A stretch of 64,000 nucleotides of DNA from a candidate division Kazan bacterium GW2011_GWA1_50_15. Its GTDB lineage: Bacteria > Patescibacteriota > Kazan-3B-28. A program made the translations under genes and the position numbers. Where the stretch lies: positions 418,577 to 482,576 of the forward strand of contig CP011216.1 of the NCBI GenBank assembly GCA_001029795.1, read 5' to 3'. Position 1 is the stretch's first letter. The number at the start of each line of letters is the position of its first letter. Under the pieces are notes generated by a model. It was given only the letters and a program-made list of their open reading frames with translations, did not search any database and was not told the DNA's origin. Shown one piece after another: positions 1,134 to 37,585 of the stretch.

Positions 1134-1208
1134 CGGGGCGTAGCGCAGTGGTAGCGCGCACCGTTCGGGTCGGTGAGGTCGCAGGTTCGACTCCTGTCGC
1201 CCCGACCA
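1134..1208 (+). tRNA. tRNA-Pro (anticodon CGG)
   Basis: acceptor cggggcg/cgccccg, anticodon stem caccg/cggtg with loop ttCGGgt, T-loop ggttcgactcc, CCA encoded; 1 nt after tRNA-Thr. Confidence 0.85.
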
Positions 1209-3885: not shown

Positions 3886-4032
3886 CTCCAGAAAAGTCGG
3901 TACCCGTGTACCTTAACATGGGGAGATTGATGCCGTCAACCCGCGAATTGATCGGAGTGATCCACCGGCCAACGGCCAACAGACTGCCTGTCCAACCGAA
4001 GCATCGGACCATACTCATCTTGTTTCCTCGGG

Positions 4033-4104
4033 TCGGGGTGACAGGACTCGAACCTGCGGCCTCACGCACCCCATGCGCGCGCGCTACCACTGCGCCACAC
4101 CCCG
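4033..4104 (-). tRNA. tRNA-Pro (anticodon GGG most likely)
   Basis: reverse complement folds as tRNA: acceptor cggggtg/caccccg, anticodon loop atGGGgt, T-loop ggttcgagtcc; CCA not encoded; D/anticodon stem register is ambiguous because of GCGC repeats. Confidence 0.7.
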
Positions 4105-4146
4105 ACCCCAAAAGACAAGATGTTGTTGCCGATCCACACCCCAGTC

Positions 4147-25762: not shown

Positions 25763-25947
25763 GCCCTCCCGGAGTAGGAAGAACACGCCAGCCATCTGGC
25801 GTGTTCTTAAAGAGTAGACCCTCGATCTTGCTGTTCGGTAGGGCTCAGATAATAGTTCAGAGTGATGGACTAGAAGATATCAGAAGTTAGAATCTGGGGG
25901 TATATTTTACCCATAATTCATACTTCATTATTCACACTTCATTTACC

Positions 25948-26919
25948 TTACATCAAGTGCGGTGGCCAGTTCGGTTCCGGCTCTGGAGTCGTTGGCTTGG
26001 GCGGATACCAGGGAGACACTTGCTCGTACCAGTCCTGGGCCGCTTGGGCAACTAGAGCCATCTTGGCCTTTAGATCAGCGGCTTGGGCTGTGGCATCAGC
26101 CACATCTTGGTCTGTCCCAAGCAAACCTTCCGGCAACGGTAGTTTAGCGTCTTCTGTGTCCGTCGTATCTTCGTTATCGTCTTCGTCAAGTTGCTTTAGT
26201 ACCTCCCTATGGAGCTCCAGCATCTCTTTGGCTGACTCCCCTCTCCACTCCCGCAGTTTGGCGCGGATCGGGATCTGGTTGATATCGCTAGCTTCAATCG
26301 CATTCATCCGCTCCTCACGCTTGGCCATCACCTCGTCGAGATGCTCGACTATCTTTTGGAAGGCCTCCCGTTCAGCTTCGGTCTTAGCGGCGGCTAACTT
26401 CTCTTCGAATTTGGTCTGCACCGTATTGACCCGCTCGATACTCTTGGCCACCCGCGCAACAGCGTCCTGTTTGTGCTCCTCGAACTTGGCCTTCATCGCT
26501 TCTGGCCACTCACTCGGGTCGAGCTCCTGCAGAGCTTTCAGCTCGGCTAATCTCTCCTCACTGAACTTGGCGAATAAACCAGCTTTGGCTTCTGGGGCCT
26601 GAGTGATACGCTCCTGTATCCGTTCGATCCATTGATCGATAGGGTAAAGCGCGTCGCCGGGCTTGGCCGAATCGGCCAGTGCGGCGGTACCGCCGCCTAG
26701 GGCGATAACTAGGGCTATAACTAATGGAATAAGTGGCATAGCAAATCTCCTTTGATTAAATAGATTATTAGTCTGATAGGTGTTAGTCCGCTCTGGCAGT
26801 GTATTTATTACACCCATTAGCTTATTTTTGAGCTGGCTTTTGTCGCTAACCGATAACTGAACCCGGCGGCCTGCCTGGCGGATCAGCTGTTCTATCTGTT
26901 TGTCGGTGTAGTTGGTCAT
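25948..26919 (-). CDS. single-pass membrane protein, anti-sigma-factor-like (DUF5667-like), coiled-coil and Pro-rich C-terminus
   Basis: N-terminal cytoplasmic segment, TM helix PLIPLVIALVIALGG, block PGDALYPIDQWIERIQERIT, E/K-rich helices, PEPEP tail. Confidence 0.45.
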   Translation of the reverse strand: MTNYTDKQIEQLIRQAGRRVQLSVSDKSQLKNKLMGVINTLPERTNTYQTNNLFNQRRFAMPLIPLVIALVIALGGGTAALADSAKPGDALYPIDQWIERIQERITQAPEAKAGLFAKFSEERLAELKALQELDPSEWPEAMKAKFEEHKQDAVARVAKSIERVNTVQTKFEEKLAAAKTEAEREAFQKIVEHLDEVMAKREERMNAIEASDINQIPIRAKLREWRGESAKEMLELHREVLKQLDEDDNEDTTDTEDAKLPLPEGLLGTDQDVADATAQAADLKAKMALVAQAAQDWYEQVSPWYPPKPTTPEPEPNWPPHLM

Positions 26920-26988
26920 AGAAAATGAATAGTGAATCAGGAATTATGAATTATGGACAGAAAGACGCCTCTTACCATGATTCGTTAT

Positions 26989-27569: not shown

Positions 27570-28823
27570 TCACTTTCGACTTTTTGCTACCTTTCTGATT
27601 ATCCCCCCACCGATACAGATAGAACCATCATACAGTACCAAGGATTGGCCCGGAGTGAGCGCCCTGACTGGGTTGTGAAATACAAAGTGCCATTCTTTGC
27701 CTTTTTTGTCAAGAGTACCGGCATAAATATCGGGGCCATAGCGGGGTTTGGCAGATAACCCGCCCACTCCGTCATTCCGAACTTGTTTCGGAATCTTCCC
27801 TATCAGATGAGATCCTGAAATAAATTCAGGATGACGAACAAAGTATTTCGGGTCTATCAGGTGGAGATCTTCCAAAATCACTCCCCGACCATAGGTGGCG
27901 CTATCCGGGCCGACTACCACTAGATTTTTCTTGATATCAGTTGAAACAACATATAGCGGGTCTTTTTGACCTGATAAGCCAGCCACCCGCCGCTGGCCGA
28001 CAGTGTAGAACCAAGCCCCCTCATGTTCCCCTACCACCTTGCCATCCAGGTTGACAATTTTGCCATTTTTAGAGGTAATGGCAGTTTTGAGGAACTGTTT
28101 GACATCCACCGGGCCGATAAAGCAGATGCCCTGACTATCTGGTTTGTCAGCCGTGGGGAGTTTAAACTGGCGGGCCAGGGCTCGGACCCGCTTTTTGGGA
28201 TATTGACCGATAGGAAAGAGCGTCTTGGCTAGCTGAGCTTGGGTCAGATTATAGAGAAAATAGGTCTGGTCTTTCACTCCATCAACTCCTTTGAGGAGTT
28301 GATGGACCAAGGTATCTCCTCGGTATCTCGAAGAATCAGATTTTTTGATTCCCCCTCGGTTCCTTGGGGATTCACCATTTGGAATTTGGCATTTGGAATT
28401 TGTCATTGCGCGCTTACGCGCGTAGTGTCCGGTAGCGATAAAGTCGGCGCCCAGAGCAAGAGATTTTTTCAAGAACAGGCCAAACTTTATCTCTTTATTG
28501 CACATCACGTCCGGATTGGGCGTCCGGCCAGTTTTATATTCGGCAAAAAAGTAGTCTAGAACTTGTTTTTTGTACTCGGCTTCAAAATTGAAGGTGTAGT
28601 AGGGGATGCCGAGATGCTGGCAGACGGCGCGCATATCGGCAAAGTCCTGCTCGGCGCTACAAAAAGATCCTGAAACAAGTTCAGGATGACTGGAGTGAGA
28701 GTTTTTTTCGCTCCAGTTCTTCATAAACACTCCGACCACCTTAAAACCCTGCCTCTGAAGCAGCGCGGCGGACACAGATGAGTCCACTCCCCCGCTCATC
28801 GCTACAAACACGGTCTGGGACAT
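27570..28823 (-). CDS. mnmA: tRNA 2-thiouridine(34) synthase MnmA, carrying three in-frame insertions
   Basis: PP-loop AMSGGVDSSV, conserved TPNPDVMCNKEIKF and ICIGGGII blocks; 417 aa versus about 365 typical; extra segments coincide with palindromic repeat elements. Confidence 0.85.
   Translation of the reverse strand: MSQTVFVAMSGGVDSSVSAALLQRQGFKVVGVFMKNWSEKNSHSSHPELVSGSFCSAEQDFADMRAVCQHLGIPYYTFNFEAEYKKQVLDYFFAEYKTGRTPNPDVMCNKEIKFGLFLKKSLALGADFIATGHYARKRAMTNSKCQIPNGESPRNRGGIKKSDSSRYRGDTLVHQLLKGVDGVKDQTYFLYNLTQAQLAKTLFPIGQYPKKRVRALARQFKLPTADKPDSQGICFIGPVDVKQFLKTAITSKNGKIVNLDGKVVGEHEGAWFYTVGQRRVAGLSGQKDPLYVVSTDIKKNLVVVGPDSATYGRGVILEDLHLIDPKYFVRHPEFISGSHLIGKIPKQVRNDGVGGLSAKPRYGPDIYAGTLDKKGKEWHFVFHNPVRALTPGQSLVLYDGSICIGGGIIRKVAKSRK
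27770..27836. repeat. MITE-like palindromic element, copy inside mnmA coding sequence
   Basis: cgtcattccgaacttgtttcggaa...atcctgaaataaattcaggatgacg: terminal inverted repeats cgtcat/atgacg enclosing two short hairpins. Confidence 0.7.
28666..28692. repeat. partial copy of the same palindromic element inside mnmA
   Basis: gatcctgaaacaagttcaggatgac; encodes the HPELVSGS insertion. Confidence 0.65.
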
Positions 28824-28868
28824 AAAAATTACAAGTTAAAAATTAAAAAAATACCGATATTTCTATCC

Positions 28869-28917
28869 CGTCATTCCGGATCCGCCAGCTGGCGGAAATC
28901 CGGAATCCAGAAAATGT
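28869..28917. repeat. intergenic copy/variant of the palindromic element family
   Basis: cgtcattccggatccgccagctggcggaaatccggaatcc: same cgtcattcc terminus, long near-perfect palindrome; further hairpins at 28931-28954 and 28963-28987. Confidence 0.6.
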
Positions 28918-29193
28918 TCTTGTTCTTGTTTGGATCCCCGCTTTCGCGGGGATGAAAGAAAAAGGACGGCCGGGAAATCCGGCCGCCCTGCGTTTGACCT
29001 TAGTTACCGCTCGTTCCTGACATACGGCCCTCCTTTGGCATCTTAAAGATACAAAAATGTGCAACCGTCATGAGAAGACGGCTAGATACTGGATCACCTC
29101 CTCTGGGCCGGGTTGGCCCAAGAATATAAGAGTAAGTGATCTGGCACCGCGCCACCTCCTTTGTAAGAAACATTACGAATTAATTATAGCAGG

Positions 29194-29545: not shown

Positions 29546-30061
29546 TCAAAATAGCTTCCACCAGGACCAGGACTTCTTGGGTTGGCTAGGTGGGAAAAGC
29601 AGTAAGGTTAAGTGATCGATCTCACGTTTGAGAGTTCCTTTCAGGTCTTCTCTCATCTCCCGTCTTAAGGAGTGAAGTTCAGAGCCTAAGGAGTTGAGAG
29701 CGATTAGCAGTTTCTCCTTGTACTCCTCATCGAAAGCCGCAGTTGCCTGCTGAACCGGGGCAGTTATCCCCTGCTCAGCGGTTGGGTTTGAAGCGGTAAA
29801 CCCCCGGTTGCTTAGCATGTGTTTGATGCCAGCTTGGGTAAAGAGGCGAGACTCCATCAACCCCTTGATCCGCTCCATCACCTGGACATCCTCAACAGTA
29901 AATGTCCGGTGATTGTACCGGTTGCGATAGTTGGACAAAAACTCCGAGAATCCCCTCTCCCAGTTTCGGACAGTCCCCTCGCTCACATTCAAATACTTGG
30001 CTACCTCCGAAAGTGAGTAGGTCTGCTGGGTATCAACTTGTGGGTTATCCACAATCTCCAT
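29546..30061 (-). CDS. MerR/excisionase-family helix-turn-helix DNA-binding protein
   Basis: N-terminal HTH YSLSEVAKYLNVSEGTVRNWER; ORF-track start 30064 is a TTG, first ATG at 30059-30061; TATAAT about 10 nt upstream suggests a leaderless transcript. Confidence 0.7.
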   Translation of the reverse strand: MEIVDNPQVDTQQTYSLSEVAKYLNVSEGTVRNWERGFSEFLSNYRNRYNHRTFTVEDVQVMERIKGLMESRLFTQAGIKHMLSNRGFTASNPTAEQGITAPVQQATAAFDEEYKEKLLIALNSLGSELHSLRREMREDLKGTLKREIDHLTLLLFPPSQPKKSWSWWKLF

Positions 30062-30111
30062 CAACTTTTGATTATATTTTTATGGTGTAATGATAAATGG
30101 GGATAAATGCC

Positions 30112-30140
30112 TTGACCTACAATGGTGTTGTAGGTATAAA
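30112..30140 (+). promoter_or_regulatory. consensus sigma70 promoter whose 17-bp spacer is a palindromic operator
   Basis: TTGACC (30112-30117), 17-nt spacer tacaatggtgttgtagg, TATAAA (30135-30140); palindrome cctacaatggtgttgtagg 30116-30134; divergent from the MerR-like gene. Confidence 0.6.
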
Positions 30141-31315
30141 ATTATTTACTGCAGCGGATAATCCCTCCGCACCTACAACGGTCTTTCAACTGAGACATAG
30201 AAAAAGATCACGATGGCTAAAATTGTTGCGAGGGTTAACATAGTGTTGTAGGTTACCTACAACACTATTGTAGAAGACCTACAACATAGTTGCAACCCCC
30301 AACATTTTTGCTTACAACATAGTTGCGGGTCAGAAAGGCCTATATATAGTTATATAATATAGTAAAGCGTTTTTCCGAAACATAGGCCTACAACACCCTT
30401 GCAGGCATTTCCCCGTAGGCCTATAACACCCTTGTAGGTGGCCTACAACACTCTGCAAAGTTGTCTACAATTGACTTTCAACCCCGATTTATGTTGTAAT
30501 CACTCAACACCTATGAGGGCGCGTTGGGGATAACTGAAATTTTTAGCCACCTACAACACCGTTGTAGGCTAACAAATATTTATGGAAGCGGAAAAATCGT
30601 TCGCGTCTACAATACTGTTGTAGGTTGGGGCAACGTTGCAGTAGATGATTACACATATTTTGTAATTATTTGTCAATATTTAGTCAGAATTTGTCAAGGG
30701 GTCTTATTCTACCTGTACACAAAAAACACCCCTACTTGGTAGCAGGGGTGGGTGTGCGATGCTTTCCGTTCCAAAAGAAAGCCTATCATGTTCCAGCCCA
30801 ACGGCCGAGATGAACAAAAAAGGAGGGACCGGGCCGAGGCCTTAAGGACGCGAGGAGTTCGCATCCATTATCTCGGTATGGGGCAAAGGAGGAACTCACG
30901 GCCCGGGTCCCAGTGGAGGGGAGGGAATAGTTCCCATCCAAACGTTGAGAAGGTAATCTGTTGTTTACTTTCGCCTGAATGACGAAAACAACATTCGGTG
31001 GGGGAGTGGGACGGCTGGCGCCCCCCAAGAGTTCGCTGTCGTCCCTAAAACTTAATGATCGCCACCCTACAGGATAGTGGGGCGGCCATAATGGCAAGTT
31101 GTTAAGGGACGGGAGGGTTCCATTGTCTCCACAACTGCTAGTGTACGGAATACTTTGTGGGTTGGTCAATGAATTAACTAAAAACGTTAGTTTTGCCGTC
31201 TACACCAATCTGCGACGGCGGGGGAGAGTAGATTGGCATGCCTACAAGGGTGTTGTAGGGATTAAAGTAGCTCTGCGACATCAAAAATCATCCGCGCCTA
31301 CAAGGGTGTTGTAGG
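30116..31315. repeat. cluster of about 14 copies (full and half) of a 19-bp palindrome CCTACAA-N5-TTGTAGG in a non-coding locus
   Basis: near-perfect copies at 30116-30134, 30420-30438, 30550-30568, 30606-30624, 31241-31259, 31297-31315; variants at 30256-30274, 30279-30296, 30311-30329, 30387-30405, 30442-30460; half sites elsewhere; AT-rich tract 30338-30362. Confidence 0.8.
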
Positions 31316-35123: not shown

Positions 35124-37058
35124 ATGTGGGGGAAAATTCTGTGTTTGGGAGTCGGCGTTGGACTCGGGGTGGGTCTGGCTCAATTTGTGTTGGCAGACGA
35201 TACGATGCCGGATGTGGTCATCAGCGAAGTGGCTTGGGCCGGCAGCACTAAATCAGCATCCGACGAGTGGATTGAATTGGAGAATATGACCGGACAAGCG
35301 ATTGACCTAAGTGGTTGGCAACTGCTTATCGATAATCCTGGCACGGATTACGCCATTAGCTTAACTGGCATGATCCCTAGCTGGGGATTTTTTCTTGTCG
35401 CCAAATATTCCGAAACAAATCCCAATTCAGCATTAGAGGTGACCGTCAACCTTAACCGAGAAGAAGAAGGATTTGGGATTACGAATAGCGGTTTCTCTAT
35501 CGAGCTTACAAACCCCGAGGAGATACTAGTGGATACAGTATGGGATATTGATACCCCTCCAGACTTTGCCTATCGACACGGGGCAACTGACGCCTCTTCA
35601 ATGGAACGTCTGACACCAATCACCGATGGGGTGTTAACCAGTAGCTGGCAAGCTCCTAGCGATTCAGTCAATTTCAAAATTATAGAGGGTTCAACGAATT
35701 GGGGCACACCCGGTGCTGAAAATTCGATCATCACCGACCCACCCACGCTTACTACCATCACCCCGGCCACAGTGACGCAAGGCGAAACTCTGGGAGTAGA
35801 AAGTATCACCGGCACAGGATTTAGCTTAGAACCGCCTCCCGCGGTCCAGTTAATCCATGGGGGATTCGCGCTGGATGCCACAACCTTACATGTGGCTAAT
35901 CCTGAATTGATCGATCAAGCACGGTTTACCACTGTCTCAAACACGGAACTGGGGTGGTGGGACCTCACCCTGGTAAATCCCGACGGCAAGATAGCCACCT
36001 TACCCGATGCGGTAGAAGTGGTGGCCCCCGAACCCGAATACGATCTCAGCTCGACTGTTCGAATTAACGAAATTTATCCTCACCCGAACACCACCAGCAA
36101 CGATGAGTTTATCGAGCTTTATAATTTGGGGGATAAGGCAGTTAATCTAACTGGCTGGATATTGGATGATGTAACAACCGGCGGCTCGTCGCCATATACG
36201 CTTGATAATATAAATATTGGCGCCAAAAGTTTTTTGGTACTGTATAAACCGCAAAGTAAACTCACGTTGAATGACAATGGCGACTCTGTCTATCTAATTA
36301 GGCCGGATAACTTTGTGTTGGATCAAGTGGACTACACCAGCGCGGAGCAGGGTCAAACTTTGTCACGATTCGCGATCGGTTGGAAGTGGACTGCGACGCC
36401 GACGCCGAACGGCGCCAATGTCTTAACTGGGCCGGAGGACGACACGCCGCCAAGCGAACCGCCGTTGGAGCCAGACGACGAACCGTCGGCCCCGCAGCAT
36501 CAACCGGGCGAGCTGCTCATCACTGAATTGCTGCCCAACCCAAGCGGCGGGGAAGAATTTATCGAACTACACAATCCCGGGAAAACCGCAGTCGATTTGA
36601 CCGACTGGGAACTCAAGGACGCGGCTGGTAAAAAATATACCATCGGCGATTTCGATGTGACGATCCAAGCCGTTTCGCTCGCCGTCCAGCCGGGGCAGTA
36701 TATCGTCGTCACTCAGGGTATGTCCGGGTTGGCTTTGAACAATAGCGGCGGGGAAACGGTCAACTTGCTTGACCCCAATGGAGTAATTATTGCGAGCGTG
36801 TCATATCCAGACAAAGCGCCGGCCGGTGCGGCCTATGCGCTAGTGGACGATAGTTTGTGGACTTGGGTATCTAGCCCCACGCCGGGGCAGCCGAATGTGG
36901 TAATACTGTCCGAAGATATGACCGAACCGTTGCCAGAAATCATTGTACCCGAGACCTTGCCCGTGACCGGTAGCCCGATGCGACGTTGGCTGGGAATTTT
37001 GCTGACCAGTTTTGCCCTAGCAGGCGTGGTATTCTGGAAACGCAGAGAGAACTCTTAA
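35124..37058 (+). CDS. cell-wall-anchored surface protein with three lamin-tail domains and C-terminal LPXTG sorting signal
   Basis: signal peptide; three LTD-like units (ISEV...DEWIELEN...IDLSGWQL; RINEIYP...EFIELYN...NLTGWIL; LLITELLPNP...EFIELHN...DLTDWEL); C-terminus LPVTG, hydrophobic helix, KRREN tail. Confidence 0.75.
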   Translation: MWGKILCLGVGVGLGVGLAQFVLADDTMPDVVISEVAWAGSTKSASDEWIELENMTGQAIDLSGWQLLIDNPGTDYAISLTGMIPSWGFFLVAKYSETNPNSALEVTVNLNREEEGFGITNSGFSIELTNPEEILVDTVWDIDTPPDFAYRHGATDASSMERLTPITDGVLTSSWQAPSDSVNFKIIEGSTNWGTPGAENSIITDPPTLTTITPATVTQGETLGVESITGTGFSLEPPPAVQLIHGGFALDATTLHVANPELIDQARFTTVSNTELGWWDLTLVNPDGKIATLPDAVEVVAPEPEYDLSSTVRINEIYPHPNTTSNDEFIELYNLGDKAVNLTGWILDDVTTGGSSPYTLDNINIGAKSFLVLYKPQSKLTLNDNGDSVYLIRPDNFVLDQVDYTSAEQGQTLSRFAIGWKWTATPTPNGANVLTGPEDDTPPSEPPLEPDDEPSAPQHQPGELLITELLPNPSGGEEFIELHNPGKTAVDLTDWELKDAAGKKYTIGDFDVTIQAVSLAVQPGQYIVVTQGMSGLALNNSGGETVNLLDPNGVIIASVSYPDKAPAGAAYALVDDSLWTWVSSPTPGQPNVVILSEDMTEPLPEIIVPETLPVTGSPMRRWLGILLTSFALAGVVFWKRRENS

Positions 37059-37069
37059 CTCTAATCTAG

Positions 37070-37130
37070 CGTCATGCTGAACTTGTTTCAGCGTCTCGAA
37101 TGAGACCCTGAAATAAAATTCAGGGTGACG
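37070..37130. repeat. intergenic copy of the MITE-like palindromic element family
   Basis: cgtcatgctgaacttgtttcagcg...accctgaaataaaattcagggtgacg: same termini and internal hairpins as the copy at 27770-27836. Confidence 0.7.
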
Positions 37131-37141
37131 GCACAAAATAT

Positions 37142-37585
37142 ATGTTACGCATTGTTACTAACAACTTGGCCGCTACTCATAAGCTAGGTGAGGCTATTGG
37201 GAAGAACTTAAAAGGCGACGAGACATTGGCTTTGGTGGCACCACTCGGCGGAGGCAAGACCTCGTTCACGCAAGAGTTGGCCAAGGGTCTTGGCATAAAA
37301 AAATTAGTCATCAGCCCGACCTTCGTGTTGGAGCGGACATATAAAGGCCGGCACCCTCTGCATCATTTTGATATGTACCGCATCGAGGTGGAGGACGCCG
37401 ACTCGACCGGGCTGTCGGATATTTTGGGCGAGGCGGTCGTGGTGGTGGAGTGGGCGGAAAAGTTAAAGTCAGTGTTGCCGGAAGATACCATTTGGGCGAC
37501 CATCAAAATAGTAGGGGAGAATACCAGAGAGTTCATATTCGAGTACCCCGAAAGTCGTAGTTATGTCTTCCAAAATGTTAAATAA
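37142..37585 (+). CDS. tsaE: tRNA threonylcarbamoyladenosine biosynthesis protein TsaE
   Basis: Walker A APLGGGKTSF, about 147 aa, followed by tsaB. Confidence 0.8.
   Translation: MLRIVTNNLAATHKLGEAIGKNLKGDETLALVAPLGGGKTSFTQELAKGLGIKKLVISPTFVLERTYKGRHPLHHFDMYRIEVEDADSTGLSDILGEAVVVVEWAEKLKSVLPEDTIWATIKIVGENTREFIFEYPESRSYVFQNVK

Follow-up and report, generated by a model that had tools for sequence, protein, structure and literature searches.

The element and its copies in the window

The sequence studied here lies in a 64,000-nucleotide window (the whole stretch of DNA that was analysed) of a genome from candidate division Kazan (Kazan-3B-28), where it occupies positions 37070-37130 between two genes. 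The gene at 35124-37058 encodes a 644-aa lamin-tail-domain (LTD) protein with an LPVTG sorting signal at its end, and its stop codon lies 11 nt before the element; tsaE starts at 37142, 11 nt past the element's end. The 61-nt sequence is CGTCATGCTGAACTTGTTTCAGCGTCTCGAATGAGACCCTGAAATAAAATTCAGGGTGACG. Folded as a single strand, the region 37066-37134 is far more stable than its shuffled counterparts, with z = -6.3 as DNA and z = -7.2 as RNA (-33.3 kcal/mol).

Alignment of the copies identified the repeated entity as a unit of ~25 nt, GTCATNCNGAAYTTRTTTCNGNNTC. In this CTGAA-type unit an unpaired CGTC or TGTC tag is followed by an 8-bp stem which opens with AT, then by a YTTRT loop of 5 nt, and the tail is short. 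The longer elements each consist of two units in inverted orientation with their GTCAT ends pointing outward, an arrangement known as an HH (tags-outside) dimer. The window contains three HH dimers (37070-37130, 27770-27836 and 28868-28957) and one solo unit (Table 1); the dimer spacers, calculated from unit coordinates by counting from one 3-nt tail to the other, measure ~6-22 nt. Four occurrences of the core unit were counted in the window compared with 0.00 in shuffled sequence, and a strict scan (TC, then AT, an 8-12-bp stem and a 3-8-nt loop) returned six sites compared with 0.88. An earlier note on this DNA had rightly proposed a repeated, palindromic and non-autonomous family at this locus.

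Table 1. Repeat units, dimers and related features, with positions in the 64-kb window
Feature	Position	Strand	Structure and context
HH (tags-outside) heterodimer	37070-37130	.	Two CGTC-tagged REP units; between the LTD/LPVTG gene and tsaE
Left unit	37070-37097	+	CGTC tag, stem ATGCTGAA/TTCAGCGT (one T-G pair), CTTGT loop, CTC tail
Small spacer hairpin	37093-37106	+	GTCTC-GAAT-GAGAC
Right unit	37104-37130	-	Minus-strand reading CGTC-ACCCTGAA-TTTTAT-TTCAGGGT-C
HH dimer in mnmA (site 3)	27770-27836	.	67 nt; in-frame translation RHPEFISGSHLIGKIPKQVRND
Unit of site-3 dimer	27770-27797	+	CGTC-ATTCCGAA-CTTGT-TTCGGAAT-CTT
Unit of site-3 dimer	27809-27836	-	CGTC-ATCCTGAA-TTTAT-TTCAGGAT-CTC
Third mnmA insert (site 2)	28320-28425	-	~33 residues (KRAMTNSKCQ...RYRGD); lineage-specific
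Solo unit in mnmA (site 1)	28664-28691	-	AGTC-ATCCTGAA-CTTGT-TTCAGGAT-CTT; translated SHPELVSGS
Long-stem unit	28868-28908	+	CGTC-ATTCCGGAT.CGCCAG/CTGGCG...ATCCGGAAT-CCA; left half of second HH dimer, upstream of mnmA
CGTC-1-like unit	28931-28957	-	TTTC-ATCCCCGC-GAAA-GCGGGGAT-CCA; degenerate tag; right half of the 28868 dimer
CTGAA-type unit sequences			CGTCATSCTGAACTTGTTTCAGSATC, CGTCATGCTGAACTTGTTTCAGCATCCA; putative Ssn target

The tag is CGTC at 37070, 27770 and 28868 and, on the minus strand, at 27836 and 37130; it deviates at 28691 and 28957 (AGTC and TTTC, both on the minus strand). Tails are CTC or CTT in the CTGAA-type units of the window and CCA in its two CGTC-1-like units; CCA is also the tail of 103 of 176 units that flank Ssn genes in other genomes (see below). 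The right unit of the intergenic dimer is a diverged fifth copy of the core unit, with AC/GT in place of AT/AT and a loop of 6 nt. Of the termini that had been described for this element (cgtcat...atgacg), the left one is present as stated, but the intergenic copy ends in GTGACG. The combination of a GCTGAA-type left unit with a CCCTGAA-type right unit (GTCAC) recurs in Bacteroidota, in Nitrospinota and in a MAG contig labelled Nanoarchaeota.

The earlier note interpreted the element as a MITE with terminal inverted repeats. A classic MITE is a deletion derivative of an insertion sequence that is moved by a DDE transposase and carries target-site duplications; the size of the elements (61-67 bp), their inverted ends and the lack of a coding gene all agree with such an origin. 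Against it, the inverted "ends" are not TIRs of the transposase type: they are tags of 5-6 nt, in which the 4-nt CGTC tag of each of the two inverted REP units is joined to the beginning of its stem. What is repeated is the 25-nt hairpin and not the pair. Solo units are common (28664-28691 and many other loci), and the spacers are wholly different between copies and between genomes. The note had also suggested a search for target-site duplications; none of the copies at 37070, 27770 and 28664 is bordered by direct repeats. We return to this reading below, together with the gene content of other loci.

A hairpin is indeed present where a variant of the same element had been reported (28869-28917), but it belongs to a different subfamily: the unit at 28868-28908 pairs with that at 28931-28957, and the two are members of a sister subfamily and fit CGTC-1, one of the published families of CGTC-tagged REPs (see below). 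Two further hairpins had been listed beside this variant. The first, at 28931-28957, is this second repeat unit. The other, at 28963-28989, lies immediately upstream of the CGTC-1-like dimer and comprises an 11-bp hairpin followed by a T-run (TCCTTTTTCTTTC) on the minus strand; because it is G+C-rich and has this minus-strand T-run, it looks like an intrinsic terminator and not like a repeat unit.

No Rfam family covers any of the copies at gathering scores in a search of the whole window, and a search at E<=10 near 37070 yielded only chance-level matches. Literature searches with the literal sequence CTGAACTTGTTTCAG, the peptide LKQVQHD and others gave no match.

Other inverted repeats are present in the window. 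At least eight palindromes of the form CCTACAA-N5-TTGTAGG lie at 30116-31315, where 0.01 would be expected by chance; they are limited to an ORF-poor stretch of 1.3 kb between a MerR-family gene (29546-30064) and ndk, have no Rfam match, and could represent operators, iteron-like sites or a further family of repeats. They flank an ORF at 30786-31169 (127 aa), which we considered as a RAYT-like gene and rejected, as it has no Pfam match and the palindromes around it are of a different family from the units described here. A 34-nt inverted repeat (25911-25944 and 26923-26956, 85% complementary) brackets the ORF at 25948-26919, a candidate transposase that was likewise rejected, since it encodes a DUF5667 protein. 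This gene adjoins an ECF-type sigma factor gene, and tandem sigma/DUF5667 pairs occur at three of the loci used for comparison (L121-L123). Finally, two tRNA-Pro genes within a tRNA gene cluster, at 1134-1208 (plus strand, CGG anticodon) and 4030-4105 (minus strand, GGG anticodon), are inverted relative to each other and 84% complementary over 75 nt.

In-frame copies in mnmA and orthologous loci of relatives

The minus-strand ORF at 27570-28823 encodes MnmA, as shown by its top homologues, every one of them an MnmA, and by its alignment with solved structures of this enzyme. The protein has 100% identity to AKM84908.1 and related accessions from candidate division Kazan-3B-28 and is encoded on a contig of 602,646 bp, so that the window derives from a very small genome. 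Three of the five CTGAA-type units in the window sit in frame within this one gene. The earlier note had correctly placed one copy there (the 67-nt dimer at 27770-27836), but did not list the solo unit at 28664-28691. Within the third insert of the gene (28320-28425) lie tandem repeats of TTTGGAAT and a GC hairpin, degenerate and GTCAT-tagged, and we assign this insert to the repeat family tentatively. At all three sites the inserted residues are missing from solved MnmA (e.g. 9hlv_A), and the inserts are thus consistent with loops or linkers.

MnmA orthologues of the clade are between 345 and 526 aa long, and the insertions that set them apart fall at four hot spots; several, among them the proteins P0012, P0013, P0015 and P0035, have no inserts. 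In a codon alignment, CGT CAT CCT GAA ... AAT GAC dimers occupy one and the same codon position (site 3) in the window and in two related loci (L121 and L122). The site-3 dimer is missing from P0012, P0013, P0014, P0015 and P0035, and from a third related locus, L123, whose mnmA has nothing at site 3 and a similar CTGAA-type dimer at site 2. At the fourth hot spot (alignment columns 511-590), P0003, P0006, P0007, P0011 and P0018 carry inserts of up to ~70 residues which are rich in repeat-type peptides (VIPASEPESRQK, SRESR); the MnmA of the window is without them.

Locus L123, which is part of a contig of 690 kb, has an MnmA with 65% identity and a gene order syntenic with the window (TsaD-TsaE-LTD-RNase Y-M16-NDK...MerR...MnmA-sigma-DUF5667). 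Here LTD and tsaE overlap by 32 nt, and the orthologous site has neither intergenic DNA nor a repeat. As this overlap leaves no spacer, the element at 37070-37130 is dispensable in L123. The presence/absence variation among relatives that the earlier note had proposed to look for thus exists, both for the intergenic copy and the site-3 dimer (neither is found in L123) and among mnmA orthologues more generally. Within the 90%-identity MnmA cluster no insert polymorphism was found: all nine near-identical sequences keep the inserts, and there is therefore no sign of recent mobility in this lineage.

Distribution of the unit

An exact-pattern scan of genome contigs, using one genome per species and covering ~1.2e12 positions, located the unit in at least 120 genome stretches from many phyla, where we estimate that ~5 would be expected by chance; the further copies that had been anticipated are thus numerous. 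Hosts among the matches listed include Sphingomonas, Novosphingobium, Pedobacter, Mucilaginibacter and other Bacteroidota, Treponema, Gastranaerophilales, Nitrospirota, Ignavibacterium and a Rickettsia endosymbiont, as well as, within the CPR, Saccharibacteria, Gracilibacteria, Nomurabacteria, Kerfeldbacteria and Peribacteria. Many of the listed matches either form inverted doublets separated by 10-50 nt or make up alternating arrays. Arrays of alternating orientation with a period of 80-110 nt, reminiscent of BIMEs, are found at L055 (1489-1677), L067 (58-217) and L088 (1188-2990), the last of which adjoins an Ssn-type gene.

The unit is also carried by a 3.8-kb contig binned as Nanoarchaeota (L033), a single MAG contig that could be mis-binned. 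Its dimer is nearly identical to that at 37070-37130 (GTCATGCTGAACTTGTTTCAGCATC...GACCCTGAAATAAATTAAGGGTGACG) and is followed by another CGTC-type unit; it represents either a cross-domain occurrence or a mis-binned contig. Among IMG/VR viral contigs, the exact 25-nt unit is present in at least 120 stretches (L205-L324). A narrow HMM built from five sequences found no Ssn-like ORF in these 120 loci (1.02 Mb), and the contigs could be vectors of the unit or could represent host DNA inside prophage calls. A search of plasmids returned three sphingomonad matches only.

With merely four or five close units in 64 kb, the copies might be thought to be chance palindromes, or products of local duplication, with no family behind them. 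The excess over shuffled sequence within the window, the occurrence of the exact pattern in so many genome and viral-contig stretches, and the covariation of the stems (see below) leave this explanation with a negligible probability.

Association with Ssn nucleases

We clustered the ORFs of the 120 listed genome loci by blastp, and found that the sole recurrent non-housekeeping family is a GIY-YIG protein of ~95 aa, which matches Pfam PF01541. At six of the seven loci bearing a GIY-YIG gene, tagged units lie within ~60 nt of the start codon, and at several they are also found just past the stop codon. The seventh, a Kerfeldbacteria (CPR) MAG locus (L052), has a truncated gene that was missed by clustering; this Ssn gene is located directly behind CTGAA-type units.

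The association was then examined in reverse, in 80 metagenome loci picked by similarity to the GIY-YIG protein alone. A tagged hairpin lies within 200 nt of the GIY-YIG gene in 66 of the 80 loci, and on both sides of it in 46; hairpins number 4.85 per kb close to the gene compared with 0.22 per kb beyond 500 nt. In the usual layout, a unit CGTC-ATGCTGAA-CTTGT-TTCAGCAT-CCA ends 20-35 nt before the start codon, and an inverted unit opens 10-25 nt past the stop codon. The units are of the CTGAA type (CTGAA-CTTGT) at 16 of the 20 closest Ssn loci, and mostly of the CGTC-1 type at more distant ones.

Ssn proteins are small single-domain GIY-YIG nucleases (~90-105 aa) which recognise such units in the form of folded ssDNA and cut a few nt upstream of the tag (PMC11893778). 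The hairpins beside their genes have been named Ssn-related motifs (SRM) by Chenal et al. (2025, Nat Commun 16:2388; PMC11893778). According to that study, the Neisseria meningitidis protein SsnA (94 aa; GIY-YIG, family cd10448) binds the NTS hairpin CGTCATTCCCGCGMAVGCGGGAATCYRG as ssDNA only and in one orientation only, does not bind RNA, cuts upstream of the hairpin, and limits transformation by NTS-bearing DNA; 71% of SsnA homologues are flanked by Ssn-related motifs, and the motif-ssn-motif layout was likened to an insertion sequence. The association between the unit and Ssn genes is therefore already published, and the 66 of 80 loci found here are an independent reproduction of it. The 64-kb window has no Ssn-type ORF. 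The earlier note had stated that no transposase is encoded nearby, and there is indeed no mobilising gene close to the element. As the same unit brackets Ssn genes and this association is published, the elements of the window are best read as Ssn-type motifs.

The published SRM pattern, HGTCWYN(0-2)YYVSBRHN(0-5)WNVSBRGN(0-2)RNCYNB, was built from CGTC-1-like units. It matches the canonical NTS, but not one of 111 distinct CTGAA-type units conforms to it, nor does any part of the window. Surveys of Ssn motifs consequently undercount, because this pattern misses the widespread CTGAA-type subfamily.

These results bear on the two readings in which a transposase would move the elements. Among the 120 loci listed there is no recurrent transposase cluster, and the only gene family that is recurrently bracketed encodes the GIY-YIG nuclease; together with the structural points made above, this makes the MITE reading highly improbable. 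The other is that the elements are REPINs, the REP doublets known from Pseudomonas and E. coli, whose mobility depends on a RAYT (an IS200/IS605-type Y1 transposase). REPINs likewise have a hairpin with an unpaired tetranucleotide tag, and form inverted doublets and alternating arrays; moreover, the study that defined CGTC repeats leaves room for other transposases that might move them (PMC3733652). However, the tag is CGTC and not GTAG, no RAYT flanked by CGTC units was found in any species (PMC3733652), no recurrent Y1-transposase cluster is present among the 120 listed loci (by blastp clustering, not a profile search), and the units lie near GIY-YIG genes in most of the 80 metagenome loci. 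We thus regard the REPIN reading as very unlikely, while noting that the two systems resemble each other in plan: both have a tagged hairpin that is recognised as ssDNA, inverted doublets and arrays, and a nuclease gene that is present in one copy and has its own repeats on either side, but the enzyme is an HUH Y1 transposase in the one and a GIY-YIG nuclease in the other.

Covariation of the hairpin

Covariation was assessed by counting the free positions of the pattern in 157 units. The pair N6-N22 is GC in 69 units, CG in 58 and TA in 22, while N8-N20 is TA in 124 and CG in 27; in the loop, Y12-R15 is CG in 102 and TA in 51. G-T or T-G wobble accounts for 4 of 314 pairs over both stem positions, and the base preceding GTC is C in 77 units and T in 62. 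As the stem positions covary, and do so almost wholly by Watson-Crick pairs, the local hairpin is under selection, in a manner that resembles pairing in DNA more than pairing in RNA.

An alternative is that the element works mainly in RNA and is maintained by selection for this, serving the upstream LTD gene or tsaE as a terminator, an attenuator or a hairpin that stabilises 3' ends; the earlier note had mentioned terminators and mRNA stabilisers as possible roles. Its location 11 nt past a stop codon between co-directional genes, a preferred position of REPs (PMC3733652), and its very stable RNA fold are in keeping with such a role. Yet there is no T-run at 37070-37130, and a terminator scan found no terminator-like site; identical units occur inside mnmA in both orientations; wobble pairs are as rare as stated above; the orthologous site in L123 is without a spacer; and SsnA, the nuclease for which hairpin binding has been described, does not bind RNA. 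We therefore consider a primary RNA-level role unlikely; a secondary effect of the element on mRNA stability is possible.

Comparison with known repeat families and proposed origin

CGTC-tagged REPs were defined by Di Nocera, De Gregorio & Rocco (2013, BMC Genomics 14:522; PMC3733652). In their description, the unpaired tag is CGTC, often TGTC (also CCTC), the stem has 8-9 bp with complementary A and T first, the loop has 4 nt in family 1 and 5 nt in families 2-4, and the 3-nt tail is mostly CCA. Units are found mainly as HH dimers with spacers of 20-100 bp, which are often structured, and heterodimers prevail in CGTC-2 and CGTC-3. Copies lie close 3' of stop codons, and some are intragenic and in frame. 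CGTC-1 comprises dRS3 of Neisseria and RPE-6 of Rickettsia, and CGTC-4 corresponds to RPE-4. No associated transposase was found (all PMC3733652).

The elements of the window share with CGTC-2, known from Novosphingobium and other sphingomonads, the tag, the AT-first 8-bp stem and the 5-nt loop. In common with CGTC REPs more broadly, they form HH dimers which are often heterodimeric, have structured spacers, include copies just 3' of a stop codon as well as in-frame copies, and have no transposase nearby. A REP-type sequence had been offered in the earlier note as an alternative to a MITE, and on the evidence of tag, stem, YTTRT loop and HH dimers it is this alternative that is upheld. The window nevertheless differs from the published CGTC REPs in its host, since Kazan-3B-28 (CPR) falls outside the five phyla reported; in its tails, which are CTC/CTT instead of CCA; in the AC/GT opening and 6-nt loop of the right intergenic unit; and in its shorter spacers. 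The CTGAA-type unit is most likely CGTC-2, a family number which we infer from the text description in PMC3733652.

With NTS/dRS3 and the Ssn-related motifs, the window elements have in common an oriented hairpin with a CGTCAT tag and a unit that brackets Ssn genes, in proportions that can be set beside each other (66 of 80 loci here, 71% in the published survey). They differ in that the stem and loop of NTS are TTCCCGC-GMAV-GCGGGAA, compared with CTGAA-CTTGT-TTCAG in the window type; in that NTS copies are rarely intragenic (2%), compared with three of five CTGAA-type units in one gene; and in that the window has no ssn gene. RPE-4 and RPE-6 of Rickettsia belong to the same superfamily and are likewise found in frame in housekeeping genes, including those for tRNA-modification enzymes, where they add 8-30 residues at permissive sites; in both cases the genomes are reduced. 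The unit sequence is different, however, and the host is a free-living or episymbiotic member of a candidate phylum and not an intracellular alphaproteobacterium. In its clustering of in-frame copies in one gene, the window is more like the Rickettsia RPEs than Neisseria NTS.

The explanation that accounts best for these observations, and one we consider quite probable, is that 37070-37130 is a tags-outside dimer of CGTC-tagged REP units of the Ssn-related motif type. A cognate Ssn may be encoded by the Kazan organism. Seeding of the copies would have depended on an Ssn, whether by copy/paste or by recombination at ssDNA hairpins, and the copies would then have been kept where they were harmless, namely between genes and in frame in the loops of MnmA; at present they may perhaps serve as marks for ssDNA cleavage or recombination. 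In Neisseria, the role that has been demonstrated for Ssn is the restriction of transforming ssDNA (PMC11893778).

A broader and more tentative proposal, to which we give slightly less than an even chance, is that the CTGAA-CTTGT-TTCAG unit constitutes a distinct and largely unrecognised Ssn-linked subfamily with an Ssn clade of its own. The unit is common, nearly base for base, to alphaproteobacteria, Bacteroidota, spirochaetes, Melainabacteria-type lineages, several CPR groups, viral contigs and, perhaps, DPANN archaea; this would imply repeated horizontal spread, and the subfamily would repeatedly have colonised the same permissive loops of MnmA, an essential tRNA-modification enzyme, in ultra-small CPR genomes.

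Implications

The elements belong to a known kind of repeat, and no new mechanism is revealed by their analysis. What is new is that a candidate-phylum genome, that of Kazan-3B-28, joins the hosts of the CGTC-REP/Ssn-motif system, that a single gene, mnmA, is occupied in frame at three sites, and that there is a subfamily which escapes the published SRM pattern. Part of the variation in protein length in the CPR, exemplified by MnmA, thus stems from in-frame hairpin repeats. If the CTGAA-type units do form a separate Ssn-linked subfamily as tentatively proposed, these elements would be mobile now, or would have been so recently, in the CPR, and would be a source of lineage-specific protein insertions.
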